A DNA stretch of 64,000 nucleotides from Candidatus Woesearchaeota archaeon (GTDB lineage: Archaea; Nanobdellota; Nanobdellia; Woesearchaeales; JAZDKJ01), in NCBI GenBank assembly GCA_043803105.1, contig JAZDKJ010000013.1, forward strand, positions 1 to 64,000. Direction: 5' to 3'. The notes under the pieces were generated by a model. That model did not search any database. It saw only the letters and a program-made list of their open reading frames with translations, and had not been told where the DNA came from. This document shows, in pieces, positions 3,498 through 50,356 of this stretch (positions within the stretch are counted from its first letter, which is position 1; the number at the start of each line of letters is the position of its first letter). Both the position numbers and the translations under genes were made by a program.

Positions 3498-5699
3498 ATG
3501 ATAAAGGATTTCACGCCAAGGCTTTACCAAGAGACAATACTAAACACCTGCGTGAACAACAACACACTGGTTGTCTTACCAACAGGCATGGGAAAGACAA
3601 ACATTTTCCTAATGATAAGTGCGCAGAGGCTAAGGCAATACCCAAAATCAAAGATATTACTTGTCGGGCCAACAAGGCCGCTCATCGACCAATACATGCT
3701 AGTTTTCAAGAAGCACTTCCAGATAGAAGAGAGCAAGATGGCAATCTTCACAGGGATGGTTAGCCCAGAAAAAAGGGCAGGATTATGGAAGGAGTCAACA
3801 ATCATCTTCTCAACACCACAAGGATTGGAAAATGACATAATCACAGGAAGGATAAACCTTGAAGAGGTATCGCTTCTGGGGTTTGATGAGGCACACAGGG
3901 CAGTGGGAGATTATGCGTACGGCTTTGTCGCAAAACAGTACCATAAACTGGCAAAACACCCGAGAATAATAGGGCTTACTGCAAGCCCAGGGGCAGACAA
4001 TGAAAAAATCCAAGAGGTGTGCACAAACCTGTTCATAGAGGCAATAGAAGTAAGGACAAATGAAGACGCTGATGTCAAGCCATACAGCCAGGAAATAAAG
4101 ATAGAATGGAGAGAGGTTGAACTAGGGGCAGAGCTAACAAAGGTCCAGTATTTCCTGAAAAGGTACATAAATGAGAGGCTAAACAAACTCAAGAAATGGG
4201 GAGTGCTGAAAAGAACAGACCTACAGTTTATCAACAAAACTGATCTTTTGGCAATACAACAACAGCTGCGCGCGAGGGCGGCGTCAGGGGAAAAGGACTT
4301 TGTTGTATGGACCAGCCTGTCAGTGCTTGCCGAGCTGATGAAAATATCACATGCTCTAGAATTAGTTGAGACACAAGGCGTGGGGGCTGCATACAACTAC
4401 CTAAAAAAGCTGGAAGAAGAAGGCAAGAACACAAAGGTTAAGGCAGTGCAAAACATAGTGAAAGACCCTGATTTTCGGTCAAGCCTGTACCTGGTGGAGG
4501 AGTTGAAGAGAAAGCACGAGTTGCACCCAAAGCTCAAAGAGCTAAAAAGAATAATCAGCAGCGAAATGCAGAACAAGGATGCAAAAATACTCGTATTCAA
4601 CCAATACAGGGACAATGCCAGCGAAATACAAAAAGAGTTATCAGAAATAGAAGGGGTAAGAGGCCAAATATTTGTAGGGCAGACAAAAAAAGGAGAGACA
4701 GGGCTAAGCCAAAAAGAACAAAAGGAGATAATAGAAAGGTTCAGGGAAGGGGAGCTAAACATCCTGGTAGCAACATCGATAGGCGAAGAAGGGCTGGACA
4801 TACCAAGGGTGGACCTGGTGATATTCTATGAACCGATACCGAGCGCAATAAGGCACATACAAAGAAGAGGCCGCACAGGAAGACAAGAGGAAGGAAGGGT
4901 AATAGTGCTAATGGCAAAACACACCAGGGACGAGGGATACAGATGGTCGGCACACCACAAAGAAAAACAGATGTACAAAAATCTTGATGTTCTGAAGAAA
5001 AAAATAAAGTTATATAAGCCAGAGGAAAGCCTAAGCAAATTCATGGAAACAAAGCCCATAGTGTATGCAGACCACAGGGAAAAAGGAAGCGGAATAATAA
5101 GAGAGCTTGTGGACCTGGGAGCAGAGATAAAACTGCAACAGCTAGAGGTAGGAGACTATCTAGCGAGCAACAGGGTGTGCATTGAGCTTAAAACAACAGA
5201 GGATTTTGTGAACTCGATACTAGACGGAAGACTTCTTGAACAGCTGAAGGCAATGAAGTCACAATATGAAAGGCCGGTTGTTATTATCGAAGGAAATGAG
5301 GACATATACTCAGTAAGAAACGTACACCCAAACGCAATACGCGGAATGCTGGCAACAATAGCAGTGAGCTACGGAATACCTACAATAAACACAAGAAATG
5401 CAAAGGATACAGCAGCGTTAATACTGGCGATAGCAAAAAGAGAGCAAGAAGAAACAACAAGAGAATTCCAGCCGCATGGAGAGAAAAAACCGATGACGAT
5501 AAAGGAGCAGCAGGAGTATATAGTCAGCGCACTGCCAGGAGTAGGAATAACACTTGCAAGGCCACTATTAAGAAAATTCAAAACAGTCAAGAAGCTGGTG
5601 AACGCCACAGAAGAAGCGCTGCAAAAGGTGGAAAAAATAGGGCCTCAGAAGGCAAAACAAATCAAGGAAGTAGTGGAAAAAGAATACGAAGAAAACTAG
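3498..5699 (+). CDS. hef: Hef/FANCM-like SF2 helicase with ERCC4 nuclease
   Basis: LPTGMGKT, DEAH, TASP and QRRGRTGR helicase motifs; ERCC4 GDY...IELKTTEDF; C-terminal HhH motifs (LPGVG, VEKIG). Confidence 0.95.
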   Translation: MIKDFTPRLYQETILNTCVNNNTLVVLPTGMGKTNIFLMISAQRLRQYPKSKILLVGPTRPLIDQYMLVFKKHFQIEESKMAIFTGMVSPEKRAGLWKESTIIFSTPQGLENDIITGRINLEEVSLLGFDEAHRAVGDYAYGFVAKQYHKLAKHPRIIGLTASPGADNEKIQEVCTNLFIEAIEVRTNEDADVKPYSQEIKIEWREVELGAELTKVQYFLKRYINERLNKLKKWGVLKRTDLQFINKTDLLAIQQQLRARAASGEKDFVVWTSLSVLAELMKISHALELVETQGVGAAYNYLKKLEEEGKNTKVKAVQNIVKDPDFRSSLYLVEELKRKHELHPKLKELKRIISSEMQNKDAKILVFNQYRDNASEIQKELSEIEGVRGQIFVGQTKKGETGLSQKEQKEIIERFREGELNILVATSIGEEGLDIPRVDLVIFYEPIPSAIRHIQRRGRTGRQEEGRVIVLMAKHTRDEGYRWSAHHKEKQMYKNLDVLKKKIKLYKPEESLSKFMETKPIVYADHREKGSGIIRELVDLGAEIKLQQLEVGDYLASNRVCIELKTTEDFVNSILDGRLLEQLKAMKSQYERPVVIIEGNEDIYSVRNVHPNAIRGMLATIAVSYGIPTINTRNAKDTAALILAIAKREQEETTREFQPHGEKKPMTIKEQQEYIVSALPGVGITLARPLLRKFKTVKKLVNATEEALQKVEKIGPQKAKQIKEVVEKEYEEN

Positions 5700-6388: not shown

Positions 6389-7453
6389 ATGCTGTACTGG
6401 TTTTTGCCCGGGATAATACTTCTGGGAATAATAACAACATATGAGGACCTAAAGAAAGGAAAAATCAGAAATAAATGGATCATAGCAGCGGTTGTATATG
6501 CGATTGCAGCCAACCTTGCCATAACAGGATATATGGCAATCACAGCCCAGCAGGCAAGAGGAATGTATTTTGTTGAGTTAGCTGTCATGGCGATGATTTC
6601 GCTAGCAGCAGGATACTCAATCTGGGCTGCAGGGTTCTGGACTGCAGGAGACGCAAAACTATTCTTCGCTTTTTCGCTGCTTGTACCGCTTGACAGCTAT
6701 AGGTATGGGTATATGCCTTATCTTTCCTCAATAAACATACTGATAAACACCTTCATACCAGTGTTTGTTGTATTGACAATATTTGTGCTCATTAAAACAA
6801 CTGCAGGGCAGAAGATGGAAAATTTAAAGAAAACGCTTGAGCCTAAACAAGCGCTACAGCTCTTGCTGTACCTGTTCGCGTTCAGCTGGATACCAGCGAT
6901 ATTACAATTTGCAGGAATCAGAACAAACTACGTAATCTTTTTAGGAATATTGTTCATATTATATTTCTTTGTGGAACTACTCAAAGGAAAAGCAATATAC
7001 CTCCTGGCAGCAATATCATTGGCAAGACTTTTCCTGGACCAGAACATATATTCACTGCACTACCTAACTATGCTGGCAACCATTTGGTTTGGCTTTCTCA
7101 TAGCAAGGTTCTTCCTGGTGTACCTTGGCTATGCTGTGCTCACAAAACAGACAGACATAAAACTACTTAGGGAGGGCAATGTTCCTGCAGAGGCAGTGTA
7201 TATTGAGCGCGGAAAGTACAAAAAAGAGAGCATGGCGCAGTTCTCATTGTTCCAGCGCAGAAAGCATTATTATATCATCGAACCAACAGCAGAGGGCTTG
7301 ACTGCCAAGCAAATAAGGGCAATAAAGAAGACAAATCTCGGACACCTAAGAATTCATTCGACAGTACCGTTCGCACCATTCATATTTGCAGGGGTAATCA
7401 TCACAATCTTGGTGCAGGGCAGCATGATCGCTTCGATAGCAAGCGGATTATAG
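6389..7453 (+). CDS. A24 family prepilin/class III signal peptidase (long, EppA/PibD-like)
   Basis: Both catalytic Asp motifs are present (YEDLKKGKIRN and TAGDAKL), with many TM helices and C-terminal VPFAPFI. Confidence 0.88.
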   Translation: MLYWFLPGIILLGIITTYEDLKKGKIRNKWIIAAVVYAIAANLAITGYMAITAQQARGMYFVELAVMAMISLAAGYSIWAAGFWTAGDAKLFFAFSLLVPLDSYRYGYMPYLSSINILINTFIPVFVVLTIFVLIKTTAGQKMENLKKTLEPKQALQLLLYLFAFSWIPAILQFAGIRTNYVIFLGILFILYFFVELLKGKAIYLLAAISLARLFLDQNIYSLHYLTMLATIWFGFLIARFFLVYLGYAVLTKQTDIKLLREGNVPAEAVYIERGKYKKESMAQFSLFQRRKHYYIIEPTAEGLTAKQIRAIKKTNLGHLRIHSTVPFAPFIFAGVIITILVQGSMIASIASGL

Positions 7454-7494
7454 GGCACACAAAAATTTATATAACAAAAATCTTTTGTGCATCC

Positions 7495-7866
7495 ATGGAC
7501 AAAATCTTCGAAATAAACAAGGAAGAAGGATATGTCATAGTTTCTGTAAACCCGAAAATATACCCCTTGGATGTGGTATTGTCAGCAGCTTATCTTTTTA
7601 CAGAAAACAATTATGTGCTCCTAGACGGAGATCCAAAGGATGAGCTCATTGTGGAAATACGACCGAAGGAAAAGGCAGACCTGGAAAAGGTTGGCATGGA
7701 GTTCAACAATGAACTGATACGCTATGCAAACTATGCAGTAGCTGCCATAAAAAACCAAAAACTAAGGGAGGCAATAATCTCAAGAGTGATGATGACAAAC
7801 AGCCTTGATCCTCTAGAGGCATTAAAACCCTGGGCAAAAAATGAAGAAAGTAACAATCAAGGATAA
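7495..7866 (+). CDS. hxsD: His-Xaa-Ser system protein HxsD
   Basis: IYPLDVVLSAAYLFT...EFNNELI...LREAII pattern; lies upstream of hxsB. Confidence 0.8.
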   Translation: MDKIFEINKEEGYVIVSVNPKIYPLDVVLSAAYLFTENNYVLLDGDPKDELIVEIRPKEKADLEKVGMEFNNELIRYANYAVAAIKNQKLREAIISRVMMTNSLDPLEALKPWAKNEESNNQG

Positions 7867-8062
7867 AGCTGCAGTGCTGCAGTTCAACAAGAAAATATAC
7901 GAAGAAAAGATGATAAAACAAGCAGCAGAAGACTATGGGGAAATATGCAGCGTGGAGTTTACAGACACAGGGATTGTGCTTAAACCCAAAGAAGAAGGGC
8001 AGCTAAAACTCGTAGGCTACGAATTCTACAATTACGTGCTTGGGCTGATGAAAAACCAATGA
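7841..8062 (+). CDS. HxsD-like small protein
   Basis: FNKKIYEEKMIKQAAEDY...EFYNYVL is a shortened version of the HxsD pattern; overlaps both neighbours. Confidence 0.7.
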   Translation: MKKVTIKDKAAVLQFNKKIYEEKMIKQAAEDYGEICSVEFTDTGIVLKPKEEGQLKLVGYEFYNYVLGLMKNQ

Positions 8063-9396
8063 ACGGCGAACTTCTGCAAAACCATGTAAGACAAAAGAGA
8101 ATCGGTGAAGGCATACTTCTTACAACAGACTACGGAAGCTGGACATACTTGAGCCAAGAAGAATACGAGCAATACCAAGAAGGAAAACTTGACAGCATAA
8201 AACTCAAAGAGAACGGAATAGTTATAGGAGACGAAAACTATGAGTCCGTAATCAGAGACTACAGGAGAAAGATAGCATACCTGTTCCAGGGGCCGAGCCT
8301 GCACATAGTGGTGCCAACACTAAGATGCAACATGCAATGCATTTACTGCCATGCAAGAAGCAAGCCAATCGACACACAAGGATATGACATGGACATAGAC
8401 ACTGCAAAAAAAACAGTTGACTTCATATTCCAAAGCCCATCAAAGGCAATAACGATAGAATTTCAGGGAGGAGAGCCACTGGCAAACTTTGGGACAGTAA
8501 AATATCTGGTTCAGTATGCAAAGAAAAAAAATCAGAAAGAAAAAAGAGACCTAAGGCTAAGCATAGTGACAAACCTTGTCCTGATGGATGAAGAAAAACT
8601 AAAATTTCTCACAAAGGAAAAAGTAAACATATGCACGTCACTAGACGGGAACCAGATGGTGCATGACAAAAACAGACAGGAATATGCACAGACTGTGAAG
8701 TGGATAAAGAGAATAAGGGAAAACAACAATATAAACGCGATGACCATAATCACTAAACACTCATTGAACTATCACAAGGAAATAGTTGACGAGTATGCAA
8801 GGCTAGGGCTTGACACAATATGGATAAAGCCAGTGAGCAAATTAGGATGCGCGGAGGAAAAGTGGAATGAAATCGGAATAAGCGCTGAAGAGTTCCTTGA
8901 GTTCTGGAAAAAAGCAATGGAAAGGGTGCTTGAGATCAACAAGAAACAGACGCTAAAAGAGAACTCTATATCTATAATCCTCAAGAAGATACTCTCCAAG
9001 GACTGCTACAATTTCGCAGACCTTGAAAGCCCTTGCGGGGCAGCAATAGCGCAGCTGGCATACAATCACGATGGAAGCATTTACACCTGTGATGAGGCAC
9101 GGCTGTTTGAGATATTCAAGCTAGGCACAGTGGAACAAAAATTCAAAGAGGTTGTGGCATCAAGGGGAACTGAGGGAATAGTCAGGAGCTCGATAAACGA
9201 CAACCCTGCTTGCGAGGTATGCGCATACAAGCCATACTGCGGGGTTTGCCCTGTAAGCAGCTTTGCTGAAACAGGAAACATAATAACCAGGCTTCCAAAC
9301 AGGAGATGCGCGATACTCAAAGGACAGTTTGACTATGTTTTCGAGAAGATATTATTTGATGAAGAATTCAAAAGCGCAACCAAACCCTGGATTTAA
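8059..9396 (+). CDS. hxsB: His-Xaa-Ser system radical SAM/SPASM maturase HxsB
   Basis: LHIVVPTLRCNMQCIYCHA, IEFQGGEP, SPCGAAIAQLAYNHDGSIYTCDE and CEVCAYKPYCGVCP. Confidence 0.9.
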   Translation: MNGELLQNHVRQKRIGEGILLTTDYGSWTYLSQEEYEQYQEGKLDSIKLKENGIVIGDENYESVIRDYRRKIAYLFQGPSLHIVVPTLRCNMQCIYCHARSKPIDTQGYDMDIDTAKKTVDFIFQSPSKAITIEFQGGEPLANFGTVKYLVQYAKKKNQKEKRDLRLSIVTNLVLMDEEKLKFLTKEKVNICTSLDGNQMVHDKNRQEYAQTVKWIKRIRENNNINAMTIITKHSLNYHKEIVDEYARLGLDTIWIKPVSKLGCAEEKWNEIGISAEEFLEFWKKAMERVLEINKKQTLKENSISIILKKILSKDCYNFADLESPCGAAIAQLAYNHDGSIYTCDEARLFEIFKLGTVEQKFKEVVASRGTEGIVRSSINDNPACEVCAYKPYCGVCPVSSFAETGNIITRLPNRRCAILKGQFDYVFEKILFDEEFKSATKPWI

Positions 9397-10220
9397 TTTC
9401 TCAAAAAGGATATCCTAGAATAGCAATCGTCAGGATTCTGCACTATGTTGCAGACAGAAGCATCGTTAATGAATTCAGCAAGATTAAGAGCACACAACAG
9501 CTTATCAGGCTCATCCACATCCTGGCAGTACTCGACGCTCTCTGTGGCAACACCCAGGCAGGCCTGCTTCTTGCTATAGGTGATAATCTTCGCGCACGCT
9601 TCCTGGTCCTGCTTATTCATGCCATAATCCTCAAGGCATGAGTCCTTGAATGGCTGAGGTAAGGATTCACAAAATGAAGGATCAGCAAATAACAGGGCCT
9701 TGCACTTTGTTCGCTTGTAGTTCACATTAATATTGTCACAAAGGGAGGGGTCTTGCTTCAAAACTGCCAAACAAAGATATTGGTCAGAAATCTGCGGGCC
9801 AAGACATTGGGCAAGGTCTTTTTGCGACCGGACCATTTCACAAATCCTAAAATCTGTGGACTCGCAGCCTGCTGTATCGAAGGGCTTGCATTCGCAGACT
9901 GGCTCAAGGCTTTGCTGCGAAGCCCCATCAGGCACTGCTGAGGATACAAGTTTACTGGATTGAGGCTTGATTATGCCTATTGTGTATACGGATTGCTTGC
10001 CCTTGATTGTCATTGTAGCGATGCAATCACATGGTTCATTATTCTCGTTTATTATGGAAAAAGACATGATATCATCACCAGAGACTTCGGAAAAGGTGAG
10101 ATTAGCAATAAAGGGTTTCTTGTCAGAGACTCCAAGCTGAAAGCCAACAGCAACAACAATAATCAAGAGTGCGAGTATTCCTAAAAGGAAAACGAGGTCG
10201 TTGTTTGTTTTGTGTTTCAC
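9393..10220 (-). CDS. Membrane-anchored protein with tandem two-Cys repeats
   Basis: N-terminal TM helix, a beta-rich segment, then about 6 repeats like D.S.C..I.....K..C. Confidence 0.75.
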   Translation of the reverse strand: MKHKTNNDLVFLLGILALLIIVVAVGFQLGVSDKKPFIANLTFSEVSGDDIMSFSIINENNEPCDCIATMTIKGKQSVYTIGIIKPQSSKLVSSAVPDGASQQSLEPVCECKPFDTAGCESTDFRICEMVRSQKDLAQCLGPQISDQYLCLAVLKQDPSLCDNINVNYKRTKCKALLFADPSFCESLPQPFKDSCLEDYGMNKQDQEACAKIITYSKKQACLGVATESVEYCQDVDEPDKLLCALNLAEFINDASVCNIVQNPDDCYSRISFLRN

Positions 10221-10249
10221 CTTAGGACACTTAAACAGAAGGATAGCTT

Positions 10250-11821
10250 TTAAATTTTTTGGTCAAACTTGGATAACCATTGATTTTCGCAATCTGAGAG
10301 AAGCATTCTAGTTAGTTCTCGAAACTTCTGGTCAAAACATTCCCTTCCAGCAAAGAGCAATTCCTTGACTGTTTCTATACCAAAAGAATTAACCAAATAG
10401 GACACAAAGCTGTGAGACTGCTGGTAACAAATGTTTTTGTCAATCGGGTCTTTGTCCAAGGCAAGCAAACTGCCAGGGCTTGACAGGTCATTGAAAGGAA
10501 TTTGCTTCTTTGATTTCAACAGTTTTCTTAGCTGCTCGGTATTGTCTGGCCGTGAAGCAAACTCGCAAAATCCTTCGGCAAGCCAATCAGGAGAATCTGG
10601 CAGAAAAAGGTGGCATAATTCGTGAACAAGGTCTTTATCATTCAAGCCATATTGGAAGTAAACCTTTCTTGACACGGGAAACCCGTTAACCCAGGAAGGA
10701 AAATCAGACCTTCCGGAATAGCGCAAGAGGTCCTCCCTATTATCGAACAGATAAACTATAACCTTTTTATCTGAACCAAAAATTTGTCTGAGGTGAGTTG
10801 AGGCAGAATCAACAGACTTCTGGAAAATCCTGGACTGCTCTGCAGGGTACTGAGAATGAATTATTGAATTTGCAGAGCTTAGTGTGAGGAAAGGCTTGCA
10901 TTTGTAGCCCAAACAGGCACCCTGACAGTTCTTCCTTGCAAAATAAATGCAATTATTGCATTTTTCGTATAGGGGAACCTTCCATTTCATGTAGTTGATT
11001 GTATCTTCATAAAAGCCCCTGAACTCTTGAAGGTCCTTAAAAGAGGTTATTCTTCTACCCCTAAAAAAAATTGAGAGGCATGGAAAGGTTGTGAGATCCG
11101 GATTAACAGTCACAATGCTGCAGCCAGTACCGCAACTGAAATAGGTATCAAGCAAATCAAGATCATCAAAACTAAAGGAACAGCGTGGCATGGGACGTGA
11201 GATGCGGTTCTTTATGCCCAACTTTTTCAAGTTTGAAACAAAATCAAGCACTATAGCTTTCTTATTATCATAGCTTTTAGCTTCTACAAATGAATTTGAT
11301 TGCAAGGCGTTTGGGACTATGAAGTCGATGTTAACTGCGTTTACTGCAATTTTCCTGCAAAGGCTAAGCACATGCTCAAAACCGGCTAGGTCGCTTGTTA
11401 TATTTACCTGCAAATTGATTTTTACCTTAGCTTTTGCTAATGCTTCGAGATTTTCGTGCAATAGATCATACTCTTCGGCAGTATAATGCCCTCTTGGATT
11501 GTAATTAATCAGGAATGATTCGGCAGAAGAGAATTCTTTAATTAAGGCTGAAGGAAAGAGTCCATTCGAAAGAATAGTGAACTTAAAACCTCTTTGGTTT
11601 GCAAGGGAAATAAAATCCTTTATCAATGGATGGAGTGTTGGCTCGCCTCCAGTAAAATTGAATGATTTTATGTGATTATTCTCAAGCCAATCGAGAAGCT
11701 CCTTGTACATTTGCATATCCATATCATCAAATTCATACTTCAAGTTGTTAGCGTAACAATAGGCACAAGACTTATTGCAGGAATAGGTTATGGCAACCTG
11801 AAAAAGCTTCAAAGGGATCAT
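10250..11821 (-). CDS. Radical SAM/SPASM protein fused to a C-terminal zincin (peptidase MA-like) domain
   Basis: CNKSCAYC, TGGEP and SPASM Cys (CGTGC...FPC...CNNC...CQGAC), then HELCH...WLAEGFCEF...YQQS. Confidence 0.85.
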   Translation of the reverse strand: MIPLKLFQVAITYSCNKSCAYCYANNLKYEFDDMDMQMYKELLDWLENNHIKSFNFTGGEPTLHPLIKDFISLANQRGFKFTILSNGLFPSALIKEFSSAESFLINYNPRGHYTAEEYDLLHENLEALAKAKVKINLQVNITSDLAGFEHVLSLCRKIAVNAVNIDFIVPNALQSNSFVEAKSYDNKKAIVLDFVSNLKKLGIKNRISRPMPRCSFSFDDLDLLDTYFSCGTGCSIVTVNPDLTTFPCLSIFFRGRRITSFKDLQEFRGFYEDTINYMKWKVPLYEKCNNCIYFARKNCQGACLGYKCKPFLTLSSANSIIHSQYPAEQSRIFQKSVDSASTHLRQIFGSDKKVIVYLFDNREDLLRYSGRSDFPSWVNGFPVSRKVYFQYGLNDKDLVHELCHLFLPDSPDWLAEGFCEFASRPDNTEQLRKLLKSKKQIPFNDLSSPGSLLALDKDPIDKNICYQQSHSFVSYLVNSFGIETVKELLFAGRECFDQKFRELTRMLLSDCENQWLSKFDQKI

Positions 11822-12846
11822 AAAGAGACACCCGCCAATTTGCTGACAATGCCTTTGGTAAGGTTACATGACTCCTGATAGCCGTTCTCAAGAAGCGTAT
11901 GATACTGAAACTGAGAAATGGCATTGCCAAAACAAGAATCCTTTAGGAAACAGCCAGAGCATGTTCTTTCAAAATATGCATTCATCATACCAAGAAATTG
12001 CTGGTAATCCACAGACCTCATAAGGCCTTGCATATCATGGATGCTAAGGCTTAACCTCCTTGACATGGGAAATGCACTGAAAAAGAAAGTACTATCAGGA
12101 TTAACCACAATGCTTTGCGGACCTGAGAAGGTGACAGATTCGTTTGATGAATACTTGCTCAAGACCCTTGACCAAGGACCAAACAAAGAAACACCATTAT
12201 TGCAAGCATAGGAATGGCAATCAAGGTATTTCGGAAGGACAATGGCAGAATGCTGCATCTTTGACTGGTAAAAATAATCAATGTGGACCCTATCGATGCC
12301 ATAGGTTTTTGCAATGTCTACGATGTCACGCAAATGGCCAAGGTTTTCAGGCATGGCATAAGAGTTTAGCTGAGCCTTAAGCCCGTGATCCTTAATAATC
12401 TGAAGAGCTTTTTTCACTCTTTCAAAGGTGGGATTGCCAAACTTGTCAACCCTGTTCTTGTCATGCACATCAGCATAACCATCACAGCTCAAGTGCACAT
12501 CAACGTTGTGGGCTTTTAAGAAAGCAGCATCGTCGTCTGTTAGGAGGCTGCCGTTTGTGTGAAGCAGCCAGGAAATGCTGATTCCATCATGCAATGCACC
12601 GTACTTCTCAATGAGGCTAAAGACATTTTTCTTGTTGATAAGTATCTCTCCGCCATAGAGCCTAACACCCAATCGCTTTGTGCCATAAGACTTAAGCACA
12701 TCACAATAAGAATTCATTGAGAAATCCATGGTCTCGAAGGACATCTGAGAGCCAGGCACTTGCGTTGAATACACATGGCAATTCTTGCAGGCAAAATTAC
12801 ACAGCCCAGTAACTATAAGGCAGAGCATGAAGAAAACATCAATCAA
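11818..12846 (-). CDS. Radical SAM protein with a reduced SPASM-like tail
   Basis: CNFACKNC, YGGE, TNGSLL, SCDG...HDKNR and C-terminal CSGCFLKDSC. Start codon uncertain. Confidence 0.85.
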   Translation of the reverse strand: MIDVFFMLCLIVTGLCNFACKNCHVYSTQVPGSQMSFETMDFSMNSYCDVLKSYGTKRLGVRLYGGEILINKKNVFSLIEKYGALHDGISISWLLHTNGSLLTDDDAAFLKAHNVDVHLSCDGYADVHDKNRVDKFGNPTFERVKKALQIIKDHGLKAQLNSYAMPENLGHLRDIVDIAKTYGIDRVHIDYFYQSKMQHSAIVLPKYLDCHSYACNNGVSLFGPWSRVLSKYSSNESVTFSGPQSIVVNPDSTFFFSAFPMSRRLSLSIHDMQGLMRSVDYQQFLGMMNAYFERTCSGCFLKDSCFGNAISQFQYHTLLENGYQESCNLTKGIVSKLAGVSL

Positions 12847-12869
12847 GGCTAATATTTTAATTTATGTGA

Positions 12870-13154
12870 TTATTCACCCGAACCTGAACAGGCACCAGCA
12901 CAATCACATGCACTGGGGCTTACGTAGACCTCGGAGCTGTGGTGGGCATGAGTGCCGACAGCAACCCTGCTGAGAGATTGATATTCAACAGTGAGATTAT
13001 TTGCATGGGTAGCAGAGGCCTGCTTGGAAGCAAGAGAGCCACCAATTATCGCAGCAGAGACAAAAGAGCCCAAGGCAAGCATTGACTGCTTGGAGATCTT
13101 GCCCTCCTCAGATAGAAGAAAGCCGGAAATATTCTTTTTGAATTTTGGGAACAT
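12870..13154 (-). CDS. Putative RiPP precursor (HxsA-like) with His-rich and Cys-rich core
   Basis: 94 aa and first gene of the rSAM operon: leader ...FLLSEEGKISK, a hydrophobic helix, then THAN...THAHHSS...SACDCAGACSGSGE. GAGGCG lies upstream. Confidence 0.75.
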   Translation of the reverse strand: MFPKFKKNISGFLLSEEGKISKQSMLALGSFVSAAIIGGSLASKQASATHANNLTVEYQSLSRVAVGTHAHHSSEVYVSPSACDCAGACSGSGE

Positions 13155-13303
13155 ACAACGCCTCTTTTTTAGGATTATGGGAAAGACTGGTATTTAAGTA
13201 TTTCGGCAAGTGAAAATACTACGCAACAAGGATTGGTTGCGCTTAAAGAAGACTTAAGAGATAAAGATAATACTAAAATAGAAATCTTTAAATATTACTT
13301 AAT

Positions 13304-13924
13304 ATGGATAATATAAATATGAACAATACACTATTGATGGAGATTGAGGGACTGCAAACCATCAAGACATTAGCAGATAAGCTCGGAATAAAGAAACAGT
13401 CGGCAATCAATCTAGCCAGCAGGCTAAAGAAAGAAGGCTATCTCACAACAACAGGGGGTGGCAGAAAGATAAGATTTTACAAGATAAGCACAAAAAAGCA
13501 AAGAATAAGGAGTCCAGGAATGTTTGACATCATAAACAAATACAGCCCGATGAAACTAAATCCCTGGTATGATCACCAAGTGCATGGAAAATACGGGCCT
13601 GAAGAGGCATTGGTGGACGCAATAGAAACAAAAAGCTTCAGGGCAATACTTGCAAGCCTTAGGCTTTTTGGCCACATTAAAGACTGGAAACAGCTAAGGA
13701 AGTATGCGATCAAGAAAGGTTGCTGGCAGCAGACGCTGGCGCTGCACGAGCTGGCAATGAAATACTTCAAAATCAGAAAGATACCAAGTCAGTACGTAAA
13801 AGAGGATGCGAGAGATTGGATATCACTAACGCAACTCAGGGAAAGACACAACTTCCCAGAAATAGAGAGGAGATGGCATGTCTATATACCGTTCAATAAT
13901 AGAGATATGGAGGCAATCTCATGA
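13304..13924 (+). CDS. wHTH protein, putative antitoxin partner (AbiEi-like)
   Basis: N-terminal HTH (LADKLGIKKQSAINLASRLKKEGY); ATGA-coupled to a nucleotidyltransferase. Confidence 0.65.
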   Translation: MDNINMNNTLLMEIEGLQTIKTLADKLGIKKQSAINLASRLKKEGYLTTTGGGRKIRFYKISTKKQRIRSPGMFDIINKYSPMKLNPWYDHQVHGKYGPEEALVDAIETKSFRAILASLRLFGHIKDWKQLRKYAIKKGCWQQTLALHELAMKYFKIRKIPSQYVKEDARDWISLTQLRERHNFPEIERRWHVYIPFNNRDMEAIS

Positions 13925-14571
13925 TAACATATGAAGACCAACTGGACGTTTTCAGATTAGTGGTAACTGCGATAAAAACAGACCTAACCTGTTATGGCTT
14001 TGGCGGTACGGCCATGATGTTCTATGGCTACAAGGACGAGACAAAGGATGTTGACCTGTTGTTTGAGGATGATGCATCGAGGAAAGAGTTCATCTCAGCA
14101 ATAAGGACACTTGGCTTTGAGGAGACAAGCCCGATTAAGGTGTATATACCCGAAAAGCTCAGGGACAAGACCAGGCCGCTGATGTTCAAGAAGGATGACT
14201 ACAGGTTTGACCTTTTTACAAAGAAAATCTTTAGGACGCAGATCTCTCCCAGGATGAAAGACGACCTTTATGCAATACATGAGTTCAGGCAAAAGCACAC
14301 ATTAACAATCAATGTGCTAAGAAAAGAGCACTTAGTGCAGCTCAAGGCAATAACTGAACGGGACAAGGACTTTGAAGACATCCTGACCATAATCCGTAAA
14401 GAAAAGAGGTTTGACTGGCAGTACCTAATTGACGAGACAATATGGCAGGATCAGCACGGAGACAGCTGGGCAATACTTGACATGGAAAAGATGATGCAGG
14501 AGCTAAAGAAATACGTATTGATAGAGAAAAAGTACTTCGAACAACTTTATGATGCCAGAAAAAAGGCTTAA
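13921..14571 (+). CDS. Pol-beta-type nucleotidyltransferase (DUF6036/AbiEii-like)
   Basis: GGTAM...TKDVDL...LK...RDKDFED motif set. Confidence 0.8.
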   Translation: MITYEDQLDVFRLVVTAIKTDLTCYGFGGTAMMFYGYKDETKDVDLLFEDDASRKEFISAIRTLGFEETSPIKVYIPEKLRDKTRPLMFKKDDYRFDLFTKKIFRTQISPRMKDDLYAIHEFRQKHTLTINVLRKEHLVQLKAITERDKDFEDILTIIRKEKRFDWQYLIDETIWQDQHGDSWAILDMEKMMQELKKYVLIEKKYFEQLYDARKKA

Positions 14572-14670: not shown

Positions 14671-16560
14671 ATGGCAAAAGACGAGACTTTAGAGGGAAAG
14701 GTTAATTCTGTAGACCCAGTGCTGAATTATAAAGGCTCGATAATGCGCAGGATAGCTGAAGGAGCACAAGCTATGCCAAAGAAAGTAAAAGCTTTTGCAG
14801 CAGGACTTCTGACAATAGGGATGCTTTACAATATAGCACCAATCAAGGCAAGAGCGCAAGAAACAAAAGAGATAACCTTAGCTTATAACGGAGCTGCACT
14901 ACTTAATGAAAACGGCTGGATAAACAAGCTTGACGACTTCCTGGATACATGCCCGCAAGATGATCCTGCCTTTGAAACAATAAACAATGATTTTATTCTT
15001 ACCCATTCGACAGCAGGAATCCCTACAATCATTAATCCACAAAATGTCTACTGCCAAGCACCTTATTCAAAAATGAATGTTGCAGACGTGACAGAAGAAC
15101 TAATCATACAGCAATCATTAAGAGTAGCATTCTATGCAGGAAAAGGCTCAGGAAGCTTGCTAGAATGGTACACAAACGAGAACATTAACGACACAAGCGC
15201 AGGACCAATATACAAATGGCTCAAAGAACACGTGGGTGGATTTGAGGTAAACGATGGCTCGCAAAATCCAGGACACGGTTATGTTATAAACGGGAAAAAA
15301 CAGTTTGTGGTCTTGCCTAGATTCCAAGATTATGCTAAAGCATTAATGCAGGAGCCAAGAGGCCCGCCAGGTTTGATAGGACTTTTTCTTCACGAGGCCA
15401 GCCACATAATCGGCCAAGGGCATGATGGTACTTGTGGTTATGGAGTTGATTCTGATTTTGATGAAAGCAAGCCAACACCTTTTAGCGCAGACTGGAGGAC
15501 TTATGAATTATTTCTTACTGGCGAATTTAATGTGGGAATCAATTGCATGGACCAAAGCAAAGCTCAGGACACTTTGGCAGGTTTATTGAACGCAGCTAAC
15601 GCGCGAAAAGATGGTTTCTGCGGAATTAAGCCTCCAGTGCTGACAATGCCGGCAAATGCTGGAGGGGCATGCAATGGGCTAGTGACTGGAGAACTGGCTG
15701 ACAGTTTCGGAGACACAATAGAAAACATGACAATACAAGCATACAATGTGCCAGGAGATTTCATCTTTGCAACAACTAACTCAGGAAATGACGGGCTGTT
15801 CAAAATCGCGAGGCTAATCGGGCACTATAACTTGGATGTGAGTTCGGGAGACAAATGCTTCAACAACACAAGCTTTGACATAGGCAGCATAGTAGCAGAA
15901 CAAAACTTTGACCTGGGAACATTAACAATGCAGCATAATGAACTGGCAGCGCCAAATATCACACTAAACGGCAGCTGCGTAGCAGGAAAGCCGTGCAACT
16001 TCGCATTCTCTGACACATTCGGCAACAGCGTGTACTACGACATAGATGCAGGAAACGGAAAAACAACGTTACCAAAAGACCAAAAAAGCGTCACAGTAAG
16101 CTATCCAACACCAGGAACAAAAACCTTAACCGCAGAATACAGCTGCGCACAACACGGAACACTATCAGCAAGCTCAACACTAGAATTCACAGTAAGCCAA
16201 GCAAGCGGACCAGACACAAAAATCGATTTCACAATCGAACCAAGCCAAACCTGCAACAAAAAAGGAAAATGCAAGATAAATGCAACAGCAAGCATACAAA
16301 ACACAGGCGACCAAAAAAGCGGCACGTCAACAATACAATTTTTCACATCACCAAACCCAATACTGGGACCAGAAGCGAAATACCTAACACAAAAAAACGT
16401 GCCAGCACAAAAACCAGGAACAGCCAAAACAATCAACCTATCAACAATACTGCCAGCAGGAACAAACGCAACAGGACAATACGTATACGCAGTAATACAA
16501 ACAACATACGACACAAACCCAGAAAACAACACAGCAAGGTCAACAGAAAAAATAAACTAA
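14671..16560 (+). CDS. Secreted multidomain protein: zincin-like domain, carboxypeptidase-regulatory-like, PKD-like and CARDB-like domains
   Basis: Signal-like segment ending ARA|Q, HEASH motif, T...DGLF, YPTPGTKTLTA and C-terminal DTNPENN. Confidence 0.7.
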   Translation: MAKDETLEGKVNSVDPVLNYKGSIMRRIAEGAQAMPKKVKAFAAGLLTIGMLYNIAPIKARAQETKEITLAYNGAALLNENGWINKLDDFLDTCPQDDPAFETINNDFILTHSTAGIPTIINPQNVYCQAPYSKMNVADVTEELIIQQSLRVAFYAGKGSGSLLEWYTNENINDTSAGPIYKWLKEHVGGFEVNDGSQNPGHGYVINGKKQFVVLPRFQDYAKALMQEPRGPPGLIGLFLHEASHIIGQGHDGTCGYGVDSDFDESKPTPFSADWRTYELFLTGEFNVGINCMDQSKAQDTLAGLLNAANARKDGFCGIKPPVLTMPANAGGACNGLVTGELADSFGDTIENMTIQAYNVPGDFIFATTNSGNDGLFKIARLIGHYNLDVSSGDKCFNNTSFDIGSIVAEQNFDLGTLTMQHNELAAPNITLNGSCVAGKPCNFAFSDTFGNSVYYDIDAGNGKTTLPKDQKSVTVSYPTPGTKTLTAEYSCAQHGTLSASSTLEFTVSQASGPDTKIDFTIEPSQTCNKKGKCKINATASIQNTGDQKSGTSTIQFFTSPNPILGPEAKYLTQKNVPAQKPGTAKTINLSTILPAGTNATGQYVYAVIQTTYDTNPENNTARSTEKIN

Positions 16561-17718: not shown

Positions 17719-20700
17719 ATGAAAAAGAGGGCGTACGTTTGCTTAGTTGTTCTTGCCTTAAGCATTCTGGCCATTAACTTAACCTATGCAGCAAAGACCT
17801 GCGTCAGTTGTGATACAGCAAATAATAGGGTTCAGCAAGATTATTATGCTGATTGCGCTTCCGGGAAATCCTGTGATTGGTGCAGTAAAAACAAAGTAGC
17901 GACAACCACATACACCCAATGCAGTTCGGGAACACAAGTCTGTCGCAACGATGCTTGTTGCACCCTAAACTGCATAGATAGTCAAAATCAATATAAATGC
18001 GATAGTGCTAGCGACGGATGCGGAGGAACCAGATGCAGCTGTCCTTCTGGCTATGCATGCAAGAATTCTGAAAACAGATGTTATGCAATTACCTGCACTT
18101 ATGGTACTGACTGCAACGACAACAATGGCTGCACCACTGACACTTGCACAAATGGAGGGGCATGGAACTCCGCATGCAGTCACCCTAATGCTTGTACGGG
18201 TAGCCAAATCTGTTGCAGCAATACGTGCACAACCCCTGCGTGCAGCTCATCAACCAACTGCAATGATAATAACGGTTGCACAGATAATATATGCAATCTT
18301 GGAAGCAGCTGCAGTGCTTATTGCAGCAACCCCAATATATGCACTGCGAGCCAGATATGCTACAACAACGCATGCTGCACGCCAGATAGCAATTGCCCAA
18401 GCCAATACTGCACAACACAAACATGTGATGACAAATGTGGTCATACGCTACCAGGCGCAAAGGACTGCACCTGCACCGGGGATTGCACAAACAAGGCTTG
18501 CGGTGCTGATAATGGTTGTAACAGTCCTTGCCTGACTGGCAGCTGCTCTCAGACTGGTTATACTTGTGTTAGTGGGGTTTGCCAACCGCCTAGTTGCACT
18601 CCAAGCAACGCCTGTGCAGCAAATACTTGTCCAGATACCACTTGCCAAGATACTTGCGGGACCACCTATCAAGGAACAAAAAGCGCTTGCATAAGCGGTG
18701 ATGGCTGCTGCCCAACAGGGTGCACAAGTTCGGACACTGACTGCTCCCCATGTCAGCCTGCATGTGGAGCAAATTCGGTCTGCGTTGATGGTACATGCAA
18801 GAAAAAGAACACAAAAGGATGCAGCTCAAATTCTGATTGCTGCAGCGACAACTGCTGCGGATCAACATGCTTTGGCTCAACTGTATTTTGTGGAGGCAAC
18901 AACCTCAAGGCAGATACAGTATCCTGCGACACAAGTTATGCTTGCAGGTGCGCAAGCGGAAACTGCTGCTATAACCCAGACAGCGGAAGCGCGTACTGCG
19001 TTGGACCAGCAAACTGCATTCACGCTGGACAGGCGGCATCATCAGACTGCCTTTGCTGCTCAGGAGTGACAGACTACTCAGGGAAATGCCTATTATGCGC
19101 GACCTACAAAAGCTGTGCAGACAAAGGTTTCAATTGCGGAACAACAGATGATGGTTGCGGAGGCACTTTGGACTGCGGTCCTGTGCCACTGCCGACAGAT
19201 ACTGAGAAACAATGCACGAGCAATGTTCTACATGAGAAGGCTTGTCATGACTACAAAGACAATGACGATGACGGCCTAACAGACTGCCAGGATTCAGACT
19301 GCGCAGGCGTGTGCCAATGCTCTGACACAGATGCTGATTTTACAAACAATGGAAGGAACTATGCGGTAGGGGGCACAGTGAAAGCCAACCTTGGTTCAGG
19401 CACTGACTCTTGTAAAGAAAAAACCCTAACAGAATACTATTGCGGTACTGGAACTTCCACAGGCATGGGAGTACATGAAGAAGTTACCTGCGACCAGGCC
19501 TGCTACACTAAAGACAGGAAAGGGGAGTGCTGCGCATTCAAATTCAACTGCAACAAGCAAAACTACCAATGCGGATGCTTACACGATGACGGCTGCGGAG
19601 GAACATATTGCTGCGGAAAGAGCGACAACTCAGGGAATTGTACAACAAGCGGGCAGAGATGCACAGGCGCACCATTCTACCAATGCACATCAGGCAATAT
19701 AGCAGACGGACAGCCATGCACGGCAGACAAGGATTGCTTAAGCGGATTTTGCAGGGGCACGCCAAAGGTATGTGTACCATGCATAGACGATGACGGATGC
19801 ACATATGTCGATAAAATAAGGTGTTCTGGAAAAACAGGAGAAAGAACAAACGAATACTACACATGCAAAATATCTGGGCCAGGAAACTGCATGCACTGGA
19901 CCAACACCACAACAACGTGCGGAGGCCAAAGCTGCTTTTGTGACATAACCACAAACCAATGCCAGACCTGCTCTGGAGACAAGATTTGCCTTAATTACAA
20001 ATGCGGAATTTATGAGAAAAGGTATTTTGCCTGGTATTCTCCTCCTACTGACACATTCCATCTACAGACAGCGTGCAGCAAAGACTTTTTCATAGTGAGC
20101 AATGAAAACACTTATTACACGAGCAGTGTGCCATTAGAGTGCTGCAAAGGCAGACTAGGCCCATTACAAGTAAAGTTCTGCAGTTATGGGGAGACTTGCA
20201 GCGGAGCAATTGATGCTTTCCCATGCGGAATAGATTGCGGTACAGATGGAGTATGCGGACTAGATGAGAACTGCGAGAACTGTCCACAAGATTGTCCCTG
20301 TCTTTGTCCGATCGACCAGTGCAAGAACGCAGCAGGAGCTTGTGTGGCCGGAACTGATAACAGCGCCTGCGGAAGTGGAGGAGGGCAATGCACAGATTGT
20401 GCTACCGGAGAATTCTGTAATGCAGGCACTCATCGCTGTGAAGGTTGCACTCAGCAATGTACAGGGAAATGCGGGGGTGCTGATAGTTTATGTCCTACTA
20501 ATCCCTACTGCGGTACTCCAGGAGCTACAGGGCAGGATATATGCTTGGATGGGCAGGTTTGCAGTGGGCAAACTTGCGTGCCTGCTCAGTGCTCAACGTT
20601 TCAGGACTCTGGAACGTGCAATGCTCAAGCTGCAAGATGTGACTGGTGCCCGACATGCTATGGTGGGAAAAGCAATGGACAATCTGCAGACCAATGCGTT

Positions 20701-50057: not shown

Positions 50058-50183
50058 GAAATAAGAATGGCGGACTGCTATCCTGAGTCTTATGAGGCCA
50101 CCTCCAAAAAGAAAGACAAATTTGAAAATCTAAAAATGAGGCTATTGATCCCGAAATAAAAAGGGTGGACAGCTATCCTGGGT
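50058..50183. repeat. 31-bp imperfect direct repeat of the 5S rRNA 3' end and flank (50058-50088 and 50153-50183)
   Basis: gaaataagaatggcggactgctatcctgagt versus gaaataaaaagggtggacagctatcctgggt, 26 of 31 identical. Confidence 0.7.
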
Positions 50184-50279
50184 TCCCGTACAGAAGTACA
50201 GTACAGCCAAGAACGTATGCCTGTTTGACTTCCGAGTTCGAAAAGGGATCGGGTAGGACCAGGCAGCTATGGCCGTCCG
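50166..50279 (-). rRNA. rrf: 5S rRNA, stand-alone
   Basis: Minus strand GGACGGCCATAGC...CCCGATCCCTTTTCGAACTCGGAAGTCAA...GTACTG...GGGAA...GCTGTCC. Helix I pairs; a T-run follows and TTTTTAAA lies upstream. Confidence 0.92.
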
Positions 50280-50356
50280 TTCACAAGGATAATATGGTGG
50301 TTTAAAAAGCTAACGGTTTATTGAACTTTGCACACCCATCCACAACATTACGGAAA

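Follow-up and report, generated by a model that had tools for sequence, protein, structure and literature searches.

The His-Xaa-Ser (Hxs) system is said to have been described on bioinformatic grounds by Haft and Basu in 2011. It stayed a purely bioinformatic family until the work of Li et al. in 2026, which puts it almost only in Pseudomonadota (99.7% in their HxsA-based bacterial survey; PMC13128918). The same paper reports that in Escherichia coli HxsB, HxsC and HxsD mature HxsA, with N-terminal processing and a gain of 8 Da on SHRSS, that the matured, periplasmic HxsA is exported and blocks the entry of phage DNA, and that HxsD is a partner of HxsC in pull-downs (PMC13128918). HxsB is also mentioned in a 2022 network study in the Journal of Biological Chemistry, which cites Haft and Basu (PMC9062424). 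What does such a system look like in an archaeon? The present analysis concerns 64,000 nucleotides of a Candidatus Woesearchaeota archaeon (assembly GCA_043803105.1, contig JAZDKJ010000013.1, positions 1 to 64,000; hereafter the window), whose genome measures 1.56 Mb and is 96.5% complete. Between 6389 and 13154 the window encodes HxsB, two HxsD-type proteins, a paralog of prepilin peptidases, two further radical S-adenosylmethionine (rSAM) enzymes, a Cys-rich membrane protein and a short HxsA-type precursor. We read this locus as one system, an HxsC-less, Woesearchaeota-type Hxs variant carrying an add-on module, because 27 of 40 HxsB loci from relatives have a peptide with the same leader within five genes and three loci (L067, L139 and L136) combine the families. 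This reading, with the maturation scheme proposed below, is given a probability of about 0.6.

Two gene sets converge here, and the eight open reading frames (ORFs) named by an earlier sequence-only reading of this DNA are all present, as follows (lengths in amino acids, aa):

6389..7453, plus strand: A24-like membrane protein, 354 aa, a divergent paralog of A24 (prepilin-peptidase-type) aspartyl peptidases
7495..7866, plus strand: HxsD, 123 aa
7841..8062, plus strand: HxsD-like small paralog, 73 aa, overlapping the 3' end of hxsD
8059..9396, plus strand: HxsB radical SAM/SPASM maturase, 445 aa, with CNMQCIYC (C90/C94/C97)
9393..10220, minus strand: Cys-rich repeat protein, membrane-anchored, 275 aa, with one N-terminal helix and many Cys
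10250..11821, minus strand: rSAM-zincin fusion, 523 aa, with CNKSCAYC, and HELCH near the C-terminus at 10610-10624
11818..12846, minus strand: rSAM2, peptide-maturase-like, 342 aa, or 336 aa if ATG 12828 is the start
12870..13154, minus strand: HxsA-type precursor, 94 aa
13083..13154, minus strand: precursor leader, residues 1-24, basic and conserved in the alignment of relatives (A2)
13029..13082, minus strand: precursor hydrophobic helix, residues 25-42, MLALGSFVSAAIIGGSLA, read from the sequence and seen as hydrophobic columns in A2
12933..12953, minus strand: precursor THAHHSS, residues 68-74, in the conserved G[TS]HxH core
12873..12932, minus strand: precursor Cys-cluster tail, residues 75-94, SACDCAGACSGSGE (C83, C85, C89), with similar tails in relatives

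The last gene of the minus-strand operon, that of the Cys-rich protein, overlaps the hxsB stop by 4 bp, and the rSAM2 and rSAM-zincin genes share an overlap of the same length. The start of rSAM2 is ambiguous between TTG 12846 and ATG 12828; the alignment with its homolog P0008 begins near the ATG, and translation may start there instead of at the TTG. A look-up of public sequencing runs for 6389-13300 listed none, RNA included.

How well do these proteins fit the named Hxs families? Against the NCBIfam models HxsB scores 421.9 bits on TIGR03978 (cut-off 370), HxsD passes TIGR03976 marginally with 50.5 bits (cut-off 50) and the small paralog reaches 55.8 bits on NF038315 (cut-off 41), which bears out how the sequence-only reading had named them. 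The precursor stays under the threshold, with 38.1 bits (E 1e-9) on the HxsA3 model NF038309 against a cut-off of 65; the match covers model positions 1-73 of 81, leader included, and there is none to HxsA itself (TIGR03979). Radical_SAM (Pfam) is over cut-off in HxsB, rSAM2 and rSAM-zincin, all three with a CX3CX2C motif, and the Pfam SPASM model matches nothing among the window proteins. By sequence, the nearest solved structure to HxsB is 5wgg (E 3e-27). The AlphaFold2 model of HxsD (predicted local distance difference test score 88.3) is a small alpha/beta sandwich for which the structure searches point to no specific fold: Foldseek gave no match in the PDB at E <= 0.001, its best rows being Rpb11-type subunits of RNA polymerase (template modeling (TM) score 0.42-0.48) beside weak rows for type III secretion chaperones, and a wider search peaked at Z 6.9 with generic ferredoxin/ACT-like sandwiches. 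A predicted complex of HxsD (A3) and the precursor (A2) scored 0.00 in two runs made without controls, a value that speaks neither for nor against an interaction. As for HxsC, the sequence-only reading had recognised none in the window, and the scores agree and extend this to the whole genome, where the best TIGR03977 match has 60.9 bits (on another contig) against a cut-off of 267.9 and the best HxsC4 match (NF038332) 46.5 bits against 500. Could one of the extra rSAM enzymes be a disguised HxsC? This was rejected, rSAM2 reaching 18.1 and rSAM-zincin 25.5 bits on TIGR03977.

The precursor belongs to a recognisable family. In an alignment of 31 precursor sequences (A2) the leader has the consensus PKxKKKxxxFLxxE(E/D)GKISK, with E16 in 31 of 31, G18 in 29 (Ala in the other two), K6 and K22 in 29 each and F12 in 26. 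The helix is followed by an HxNxL motif (H50 30/31, N52 28/31) and by the G[TS]HxH core, in which H69 is invariant while H71 and H72 are kept in 24 and 25 sequences, respectively. Among NCBIfam models, HxsA3 matches 28, HxsA4 11 and HxsA 4 of the 31. The notion of an HxsA-type peptide with a pilin-like leader is supported. The A2 profile finds 385 proteins at E <= 0.001 in a collection of 5.8 billion; every one of these that carries a name from its source is a 'hypothetical protein', and those named by NCBI come from Candidatus Woesearchaeota. Many relatives have SHGSHGSH runs; 5-21 HxS units follow their conserved core, and the last residue is aromatic or Cys. The window precursor is down to GTHAHHSS, with one HxS unit counted after H69, and then has the tail EVYVSPSACDCAGACSGSGE; because its relatives carry 5-21 units, it is best read as a reduced member of the HxS-repeat family. 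P0107, the homolog nearest to it (94 aa, 63% identity), is built alike, and P0046, P0054 and P0099 carry full HxS arrays followed by Cys tails of the (CA)n type; comparable Cys tails occur in L067, L139, P0107, P0046, P0054 and P0099. The HxsA3 model found nothing above cut-off in 41 related genomes. Five of its 11 matches there outside the window lie in the same locus as HxsB (adjacent, or 1-4 genes apart); the remaining six are three YcaO-type fusions, one peptide beside an A24 paralog only, one ORF on contig C4 of the window's own genome and one on a 1.7-kb contig, where linkage is not judgeable.

Is the gene set a peculiarity of this genome? Within the same order 69 of the 301 genomes sampled have HxsB over cut-off and 85 have it at E <= 1e-30 (tallies that include the window's genome and G207, a genome flagged as unpublished); it occurs in 59 of the 216 genera sampled and is hence patchy. 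In a phylum-wide sample, 32 of 251 genomes have it at E <= 1e-80, 31 of them (the window's included) from the same order and one from the same class. From the over-cut-off rows, 40 HxsB-centred loci of 38 genomes were picked by rank and contig room, leaving out G207 and many contig-end matches. Their ORFs come from our own caller (ORFs under 45 aa are missed) and were labelled with three jackhmmer rounds seeded with the window proteins; the genomes are related, so that counts are not independent events, and many contigs are short. All 40 loci have an HxsD-type gene no more than five genes from HxsB, and 29 have two; within the same distance the A24 paralog is found in 28, a peptide with the same leader in 27 (usually directly downstream) and further, non-HxsB rSAM genes in 27. 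Typically A24 comes first, then the long HxsD, the short HxsD, HxsB and the precursor. The co-occurrence of A24, hxsB and precursor that the sequence-only reading proposed to check is found across relatives, and because the same gene combination recurs there it is more than chance. The label of a 'hybrid system' does not survive these counts: the A24/HxsD/HxsB/precursor core is a common, conserved architecture of the order and is not unique to this locus. Only the rSAM pair and the Cys tail come on top of that core as an add-on, and this too recurs, in L067, L139 and L134. In 13 of the 40 loci an rSAM gene directly follows HxsB, mostly where no leader peptide was detected. Twelve of these were scored (the 13th, a 645-aa gene in L043, was left out) and all match HxsC4 best, at 114-163 bits (cut-off 500), and HxsC second, at 89-107 bits (cut-off 267.9). 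To go by these scores, two subtypes exist in the order, one HxsC-like and the other HxsC-less and peptide-adjacent; the window holds the second.

Compared with bacterial HxsABCD, the likenesses are these: HxsB and HxsD are over the family cut-offs, the order D-(D')-B-A resembles D-B-C-A, the precursor family has HxS repeats and an N-terminal signal for export or processing, and maturation would again be followed by N-terminal processing and export. There are differences too. The window's genome has no HxsC, two HxsD paralogs and a dedicated A24 peptidase, its precursor includes a membrane helix but lacks a peptidoglycan-binding domain, the HxS array is cut to one THAHHSS plus a Cys tail that comes with two further rSAM enzymes, and the host is an archaeon. 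That variant Hxs systems are already known to curators can be seen from the names of the NCBIfam models HxsA3 (NF038309), HxsA4 (NF038313), HxsD-like (NF038315) and HxsC4 (NF038332). The small HxsD paralog passes the third of these, whereas the precursor (38.1 against 65 bits) and the HxsC4-like genes of relatives (114-163 against 500) fall short of theirs.

What could the parts do together? The parts are identified, their linkage is conserved and so are the residues named here; the scheme built on them runs as follows. The precursor consists of a basic leader, one membrane helix, a His core (HxNxL...GTHAHHSS) and the Cys-cluster tail. HxsB, aided by both HxsD-type proteins, would modify the His core in the cytoplasm, and the pair of rSAM2 and rSAM-zincin would act on the Cys tail, where cross-linking is the likeliest change; trimming of the tail by the zincin domain is a further possibility. 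The peptide would insert with its N-terminus inside and its C-terminus outside, the basic leader holding the N-terminus in and the helix crossing the membrane. Removal of the leader at the inner membrane face would then fall to the A24 paralog, with the best candidate site after G18, leaving a membrane-anchored surface peptide of ~76 aa with a modified outer part of ~50 residues. The division of labour between HxsB on the His motif and the two extra rSAM enzymes on the Cys tail was already proposed by the sequence-only reading, and it fits the comparison: H69 is kept in 31 of 31 precursors, and members of the rSAM-zincin family (at least 98 bits) occur in three loci of the 31 peptides, all three with a Cys tail after the His region, whereas none is near the other 28.

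The two extra enzymes probably work as a pair, because their genes overlap by 4 bp, recur together, unfused, in L134 and are joined in P0008. This protein of 878 aa is 48% identical over 98% of the rSAM-zincin query, its residues 4-331 are 45% identical to rSAM2, and it is, to judge from these alignments, a natural fusion of the proteins whose genes are overlapping neighbours in the window. The family of rSAM-zincin (Radical_SAM 53.4 bits) comprises 16 full-length homologs of 38-57% identity, four of them 838-891 aa long. In 12 sequences the CX3CX2C motif, C214/230/248/288/291/299/303, H400, E401, H404 and E416 are invariant, and Peptidase_MA_2 (PF13485) matches 10 of the 12, at best with E 2.5e-15; HExxH, a downstream Glu and the domain, which mark zincins of the peptidase MA clan, are thus all found at the level of the family. 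The best NCBIfam matches of rSAM2, all far under cut-off, are YhhB (75.4 bits), PapB (73.7) and HxsB (72.4). Among described enzymes, the rSAM/SPASM maturases of Cys-rich peptides (SCIFF/CteB, 5wgg; the ranthipeptide enzyme PapB; CcpM) are the best matches of rSAM2, rSAM-zincin and HxsB, and the clustered Cys of the tail resemble their substrates; the scores are all far under the family cut-offs, however, and the rSAM-zincin family has no name. Contig scans of genomes and metagenomes with the rSAM-zincin alignment returned mostly relatives of the N-terminal rSAM domain (20-34% identity), with L067 and L134-L139 the informative loci. In L067, the closest named relative, from Woesearchaeota, one strand encodes a Cys-rich protein, A24 (46% identity), HxsD (62%), HxsD-like, HxsB (62%), four unrelated genes, a precursor and two rSAM enzymes. 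The precursor has 138 aa, the same VAVGTHAHHSS and a long Cys/Thr/Ser tail; the rSAM enzyme after it belongs to the zincin-fusion family (32% identity, no zincin domain) and is followed by the other. L139 has HxsB, a precursor whose HxS array ends in ...SACCTTIE, and an rSAM-zincin (48% identity), and in L136, which has a peptide of CxHxSC repeats, A24 and HxsD flank an rSAM of the zincin-fusion family. As for the Cys-rich membrane protein, no match was found in Pfam, NCBIfam or PADLOC and no usable one in the ESM Atlas, where structural TM scores stayed at or below 0.39; weak homologs adjoin the A24/Hxs genes of L067 (31% identity) and of L136, and L037 holds another beside the system. Elsewhere (L058:17016-18956, L060:280-2136 and L046:2822-4651) rSAM domains of the zincin-fusion family are joined instead to a family 9 glycosyltransferase domain, another rSAM is fused to an amidohydrolase domain, and several rSAM proteins of relatives (about 600-715 aa) have two rSAM domains in tandem.

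The A24 protein of the window carries the archaeal C-terminal domain Arc_PepC (PF06819; 25.9 bits, cut-off 23.4). Its putative catalytic residues are D20 (6446-6448) and D88 in GDAKL (6650-6652), retained in 34 of 35 paralogs apiece, with K90 present in all 35; the context of D88, AGDAKL, gives the two-Asp, GxGD/GDxK-type motif expected of the A24 family. A second A24 in the genome, on contig C5, fits Pfam well (54.4 bits against 24.2 for the window protein in the same genome search), and for this reason the window protein is a divergent paralog and not the general prepilin peptidase of the cell. No pilus ATPase or platform genes were recognised in the window. The paralog is probably active and dedicated to the peptide system, to go by its conserved residues and neighbours. 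It also adjoins leader-bearing genes in loci without HxsB, namely L023 and all three fusion genes of genome G016. In G016, where HxsB has no match at E <= 1e-30, three genes (L020:6605-7207, L020:15260-16450 and L022:6543-7163, all on the minus strand) join an HxsD domain to the front of this leader and helix, with Cys-rich cores after them. Each has an A24 paralog about 2-2.5 kb away and an adjoining YcaO gene (218-238 bits), in L022 followed by a gene of the nitroreductase family; these loci are an azole-type version of the leader/A24/HxsD platform. Like known azole-forming systems of YcaO and dehydrogenase, the G016 loci have a YcaO, here beside the same leader and helix, A24 and fused HxsD; the window itself has none. 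Because HxsD is fused to the leader three times in a genome with no HxsB match, it seems tied to the leader and not to HxsC. And chiefly because leader, A24 paralog and HxsD keep company across different tailoring chemistries, we think that the paralog acts on the leader and that HxsD handles leader or precursor, beyond being a mere partner of HxsC. Some leader-bearing His or Cys peptides (P0075, P0142, P0150 and, of the three fusions, L020:15260-16450 on the minus strand) have a Hint (intein-like) C-terminal domain starting at a CCFP motif, which suggests self-cleavage releasing the C-terminus of the peptide. The leader/A24/HxsD part looks like a reusable platform. A wider idea, put forward tentatively, is that Woesearchaeota-type archaea have a platform for surface-displayed modified peptides in which an HxsD-type domain recognises leader and helix, a dedicated A24 makes the cut, and HxsB (for His repeats), the rSAM/rSAM-zincin pair (Cys tails), YcaO (Cys-rich cores) or Hint (self-cleavage) can be swapped in.

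Several observations weigh against the one-system reading and its scheme. Modification, cleavage and export are all steps that we infer. HxsB may act differently here than in bacteria, because the HxsC that the bacterial system needs is absent, and the HxsC-like and HxsC-less subtypes might themselves function differently. Labels in relatives rest on our own ORF calls and iterative hidden Markov models, over genomes that are mutually related. The window rSAM-zincin, for all its HELCH, scores 19.3 bits on Peptidase_MA_2, under the cut-off of 32.4, and the association of its family with Cys tails comes from three loci, two of which (L067 and L139) were found through searches with that family. 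The leader-bearing ORF on contig C4 of the same genome (L017:2525-2794, minus strand, 89 aa) has the same leader, helix and H/N motif, no HxS array, and no rSAM, HxsD or A24 nearby. Possible readings are a second substrate for the A24 paralog or what is left of the usual p30-linked locus. The ORF adjoins L017:2827-3534 (RNase P p30-like by eye) and two Cys-rich secreted proteins. Might the locus then be two unrelated clusters that happen to abut, an Hxs module whose precursor is lost or lies elsewhere and a separate rSAM peptide cluster that makes no use of HxsB? The convergent arrangement on opposite strands would suit this, as would the second leader-bearing ORF and the finding that none of the 40 HxsB-sampled loci has a homolog of the C-terminal part of rSAM2 or of rSAM-zincin. 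Yet the window precursor shares the leader and the H50/N52/H69 core with the peptides that follow HxsB in 27 of those 40 loci, no other precursor stands beside HxsB in the window, and L067, L139 and L136 hold the same families in one co-directional locus. The earlier view that the two convergent sets belong together is upheld by these loci, and an origin as two clusters is improbable.

For the cleavage step of the one-system scheme, the counterweights lie in the peptidase and in the leader. The A24 protein stays below the Peptidase_A24 cut-off of 26.5 (21.0 bits with hmmscan, 24.2 in the genome search), and 12 of the 40 HxsB loci have no A24 paralog within five genes. Archaeal class III signals have a basic N-region, Gly or Ala at position -1 after a charged residue, and a hydrophobic stretch that starts at the cut. 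Of these features the leader offers the basic N-region, with one helix, and at G18 a column of Gly or Ala only, after Glu or Asp; six polar residues separate it from the helix. With those six residues and a variable residue before F12, the leader may not be a classical class III signal. The pilin-style cut between Gly and Phe that had been proposed (G|FLLSE) is doubtful, and a cut before F12, with E16 at +5, was judged unlikely, as the -1 column varies (S12, A8, D6 and G3 of 31, plus others). G18 is the only leader column that fits the archaeal rule and would be the best candidate cleavage site. Archaeal prepilin processing (PibD, FlaK, EppA) is thus a partial parallel: alike are the two-Asp A24 with GDxKL, the basic N-region with a helix, and the Gly/Ala-only G18 after an acidic residue; different are the divergent paralog beside a canonical A24, the six polar residues between candidate site and helix, and the kind of substrate, here a small modified peptide instead of a pilin that has a globular head. 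Is the A24-like protein cutting the leader at all? Scaffolding, export, immunity or the cleavage of other substrates are roles it could have instead, the helix then serving as a plain signal anchor that stays intact or is cut by signal peptidase or the zincin. The low Pfam score, the loci lacking the paralog, the fused zincin as an alternative protease and the want of a leader column equal to the classical prepilin site, immediately before the hydrophobic stretch, would all agree with this. Speaking for cleavage are both Asp and the GDxKL motif, kept in 34-35 of 35 paralogs, the paralog's habit of following the leader even where the tailoring enzymes differ (L023 and the YcaO-type loci of G016), and the canonical A24 that is available for ordinary pilins. 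A protein that leaves the leader uncut is accordingly a rather unlikely alternative, and A24 cleavage stays in the proposed scheme.

What would the one system be for? Our leading guess, a tentative one made by analogy with the single Hxs system that has been put to the test, is a surface barrier against the entry of viruses. Binding of metals through the His/Cys array comes close behind in likelihood, and the His/Cys composition suits it equally well. The genes that flank the locus encode Hef, TraB-family, metallo-beta-lactamase-fold and TPR proteins, with no defence genes or island among them, and PADLOC gave only generic viperin-model matches to the three rSAM domains and nothing specific; both count against a defence role. 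The same maturation could indeed serve another end, be it a surface or released peptide that binds metal (Ni, Zn, Cu or Fe) or a peptide for adhesion or host contact of an episymbiont. The SHGSHG arrays and the (CA)n Cys tails of relatives are compositions typical of metal ligands, and a system that is frequent in the order (69 of 301 genomes) and adjoins a housekeeping gene, that of RNase P p30, at 10 of the 40 loci resembles a core trait more than it does a mobile island of defence genes, which is also in keeping with the flanks. On the other side, the only experimental result on Hxs, that of Li et al., is phage defence by exported HxsA (PMC13128918), and the patchy distribution (59 of 216 genera) is one often seen with defence systems. 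Such another purpose is a tentative reading too, nearly as likely as the barrier.

Literature searches for His-Xaa-Ser radical SAM or HxsB found only unrelated work beyond the 2026 paper, with its preprint, and the 2022 study. Nothing was found on HxsA3, HxsC4, HxsD-like or HxsA2, nor anything joining prepilin peptidase, ribosomally synthesized and post-translationally modified peptides (RiPPs), radical SAM and archaea; among papers on DPANN, RiPPs and radical SAM none deals with this system by title or abstract. The archaeal HxsC-less architecture was thus not found in print, though the supplements of the Hxs paper could list rare systems from outside the proteobacteria.

Some neighbours deserve mention. 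The family that neighbours HxsB in 10 of the 40 loci includes RNase P p30 (a Pfam match for L044:6677-7276 and none for L034:11327-11887); other recurrent neighbours are large unannotated proteins (16 loci), a B12-binding rSAM (7) and DUF362 with ferredoxin (5). Membership of the window's large flanking proteins in the family of the 16 loci was dropped, with one weak match only. In the window, an HTH (helix-turn-helix) protein with a weak MarR_2 match and a 216-aa nucleotidyltransferase-like GG...KDVD protein (13304-14571, plus strand) diverge from the precursor; conservation with the analogous pair of L067, between HxsB and precursor, was considered and dropped (BLASTP E 17 and 0.006, likeness at motif level only). 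Further along the plus strand lie a 629-aa ORF (14671-16560) with weak, sub-cut-off matches to CARDB, PKD and CarboxypepD_reg, domain types that suggest a surface protein, and a 1678-aa ORF (17719-22755) with no Pfam match at E <= 1e-5. Upstream of the locus, a Hef-type helicase-nuclease (3498-5699, plus strand; DEAD, Helicase_C, ERCC4 and HhH domains) fits an archaeal genome. The sole Rfam match in the window at the gathering threshold is a 5S rRNA gene (50164-50280, minus strand; 64 bits).

Three Fe-S enzymes and two proteases for one 94-aa peptide, in a genome of this size, suggest that the product matters to the cell. Among the sampled genomes of an order of tiny uncultured archaea the HxsB/HxsD core is frequent; there it does without HxsC and is linked with a prepilin-type peptidase of its own and with peptides that have a membrane helix. 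If the scheme holds, it would offer an HxsC-less system for learning how HxsB acts on the invariant His, and a new route by which modified peptides are exported and trimmed. If the platform reading is true, this would be the first prepilin-type peptidase to serve as leader peptidase of ribosomally made, modified peptides, and the Hxs-type products could do for archaea what the bacterial barrier does against the entry of viral DNA. The scheme, if it holds, would also provide a candidate trait for surface defence or metal handling in DPANN archaea, whose surfaces govern symbiont life.

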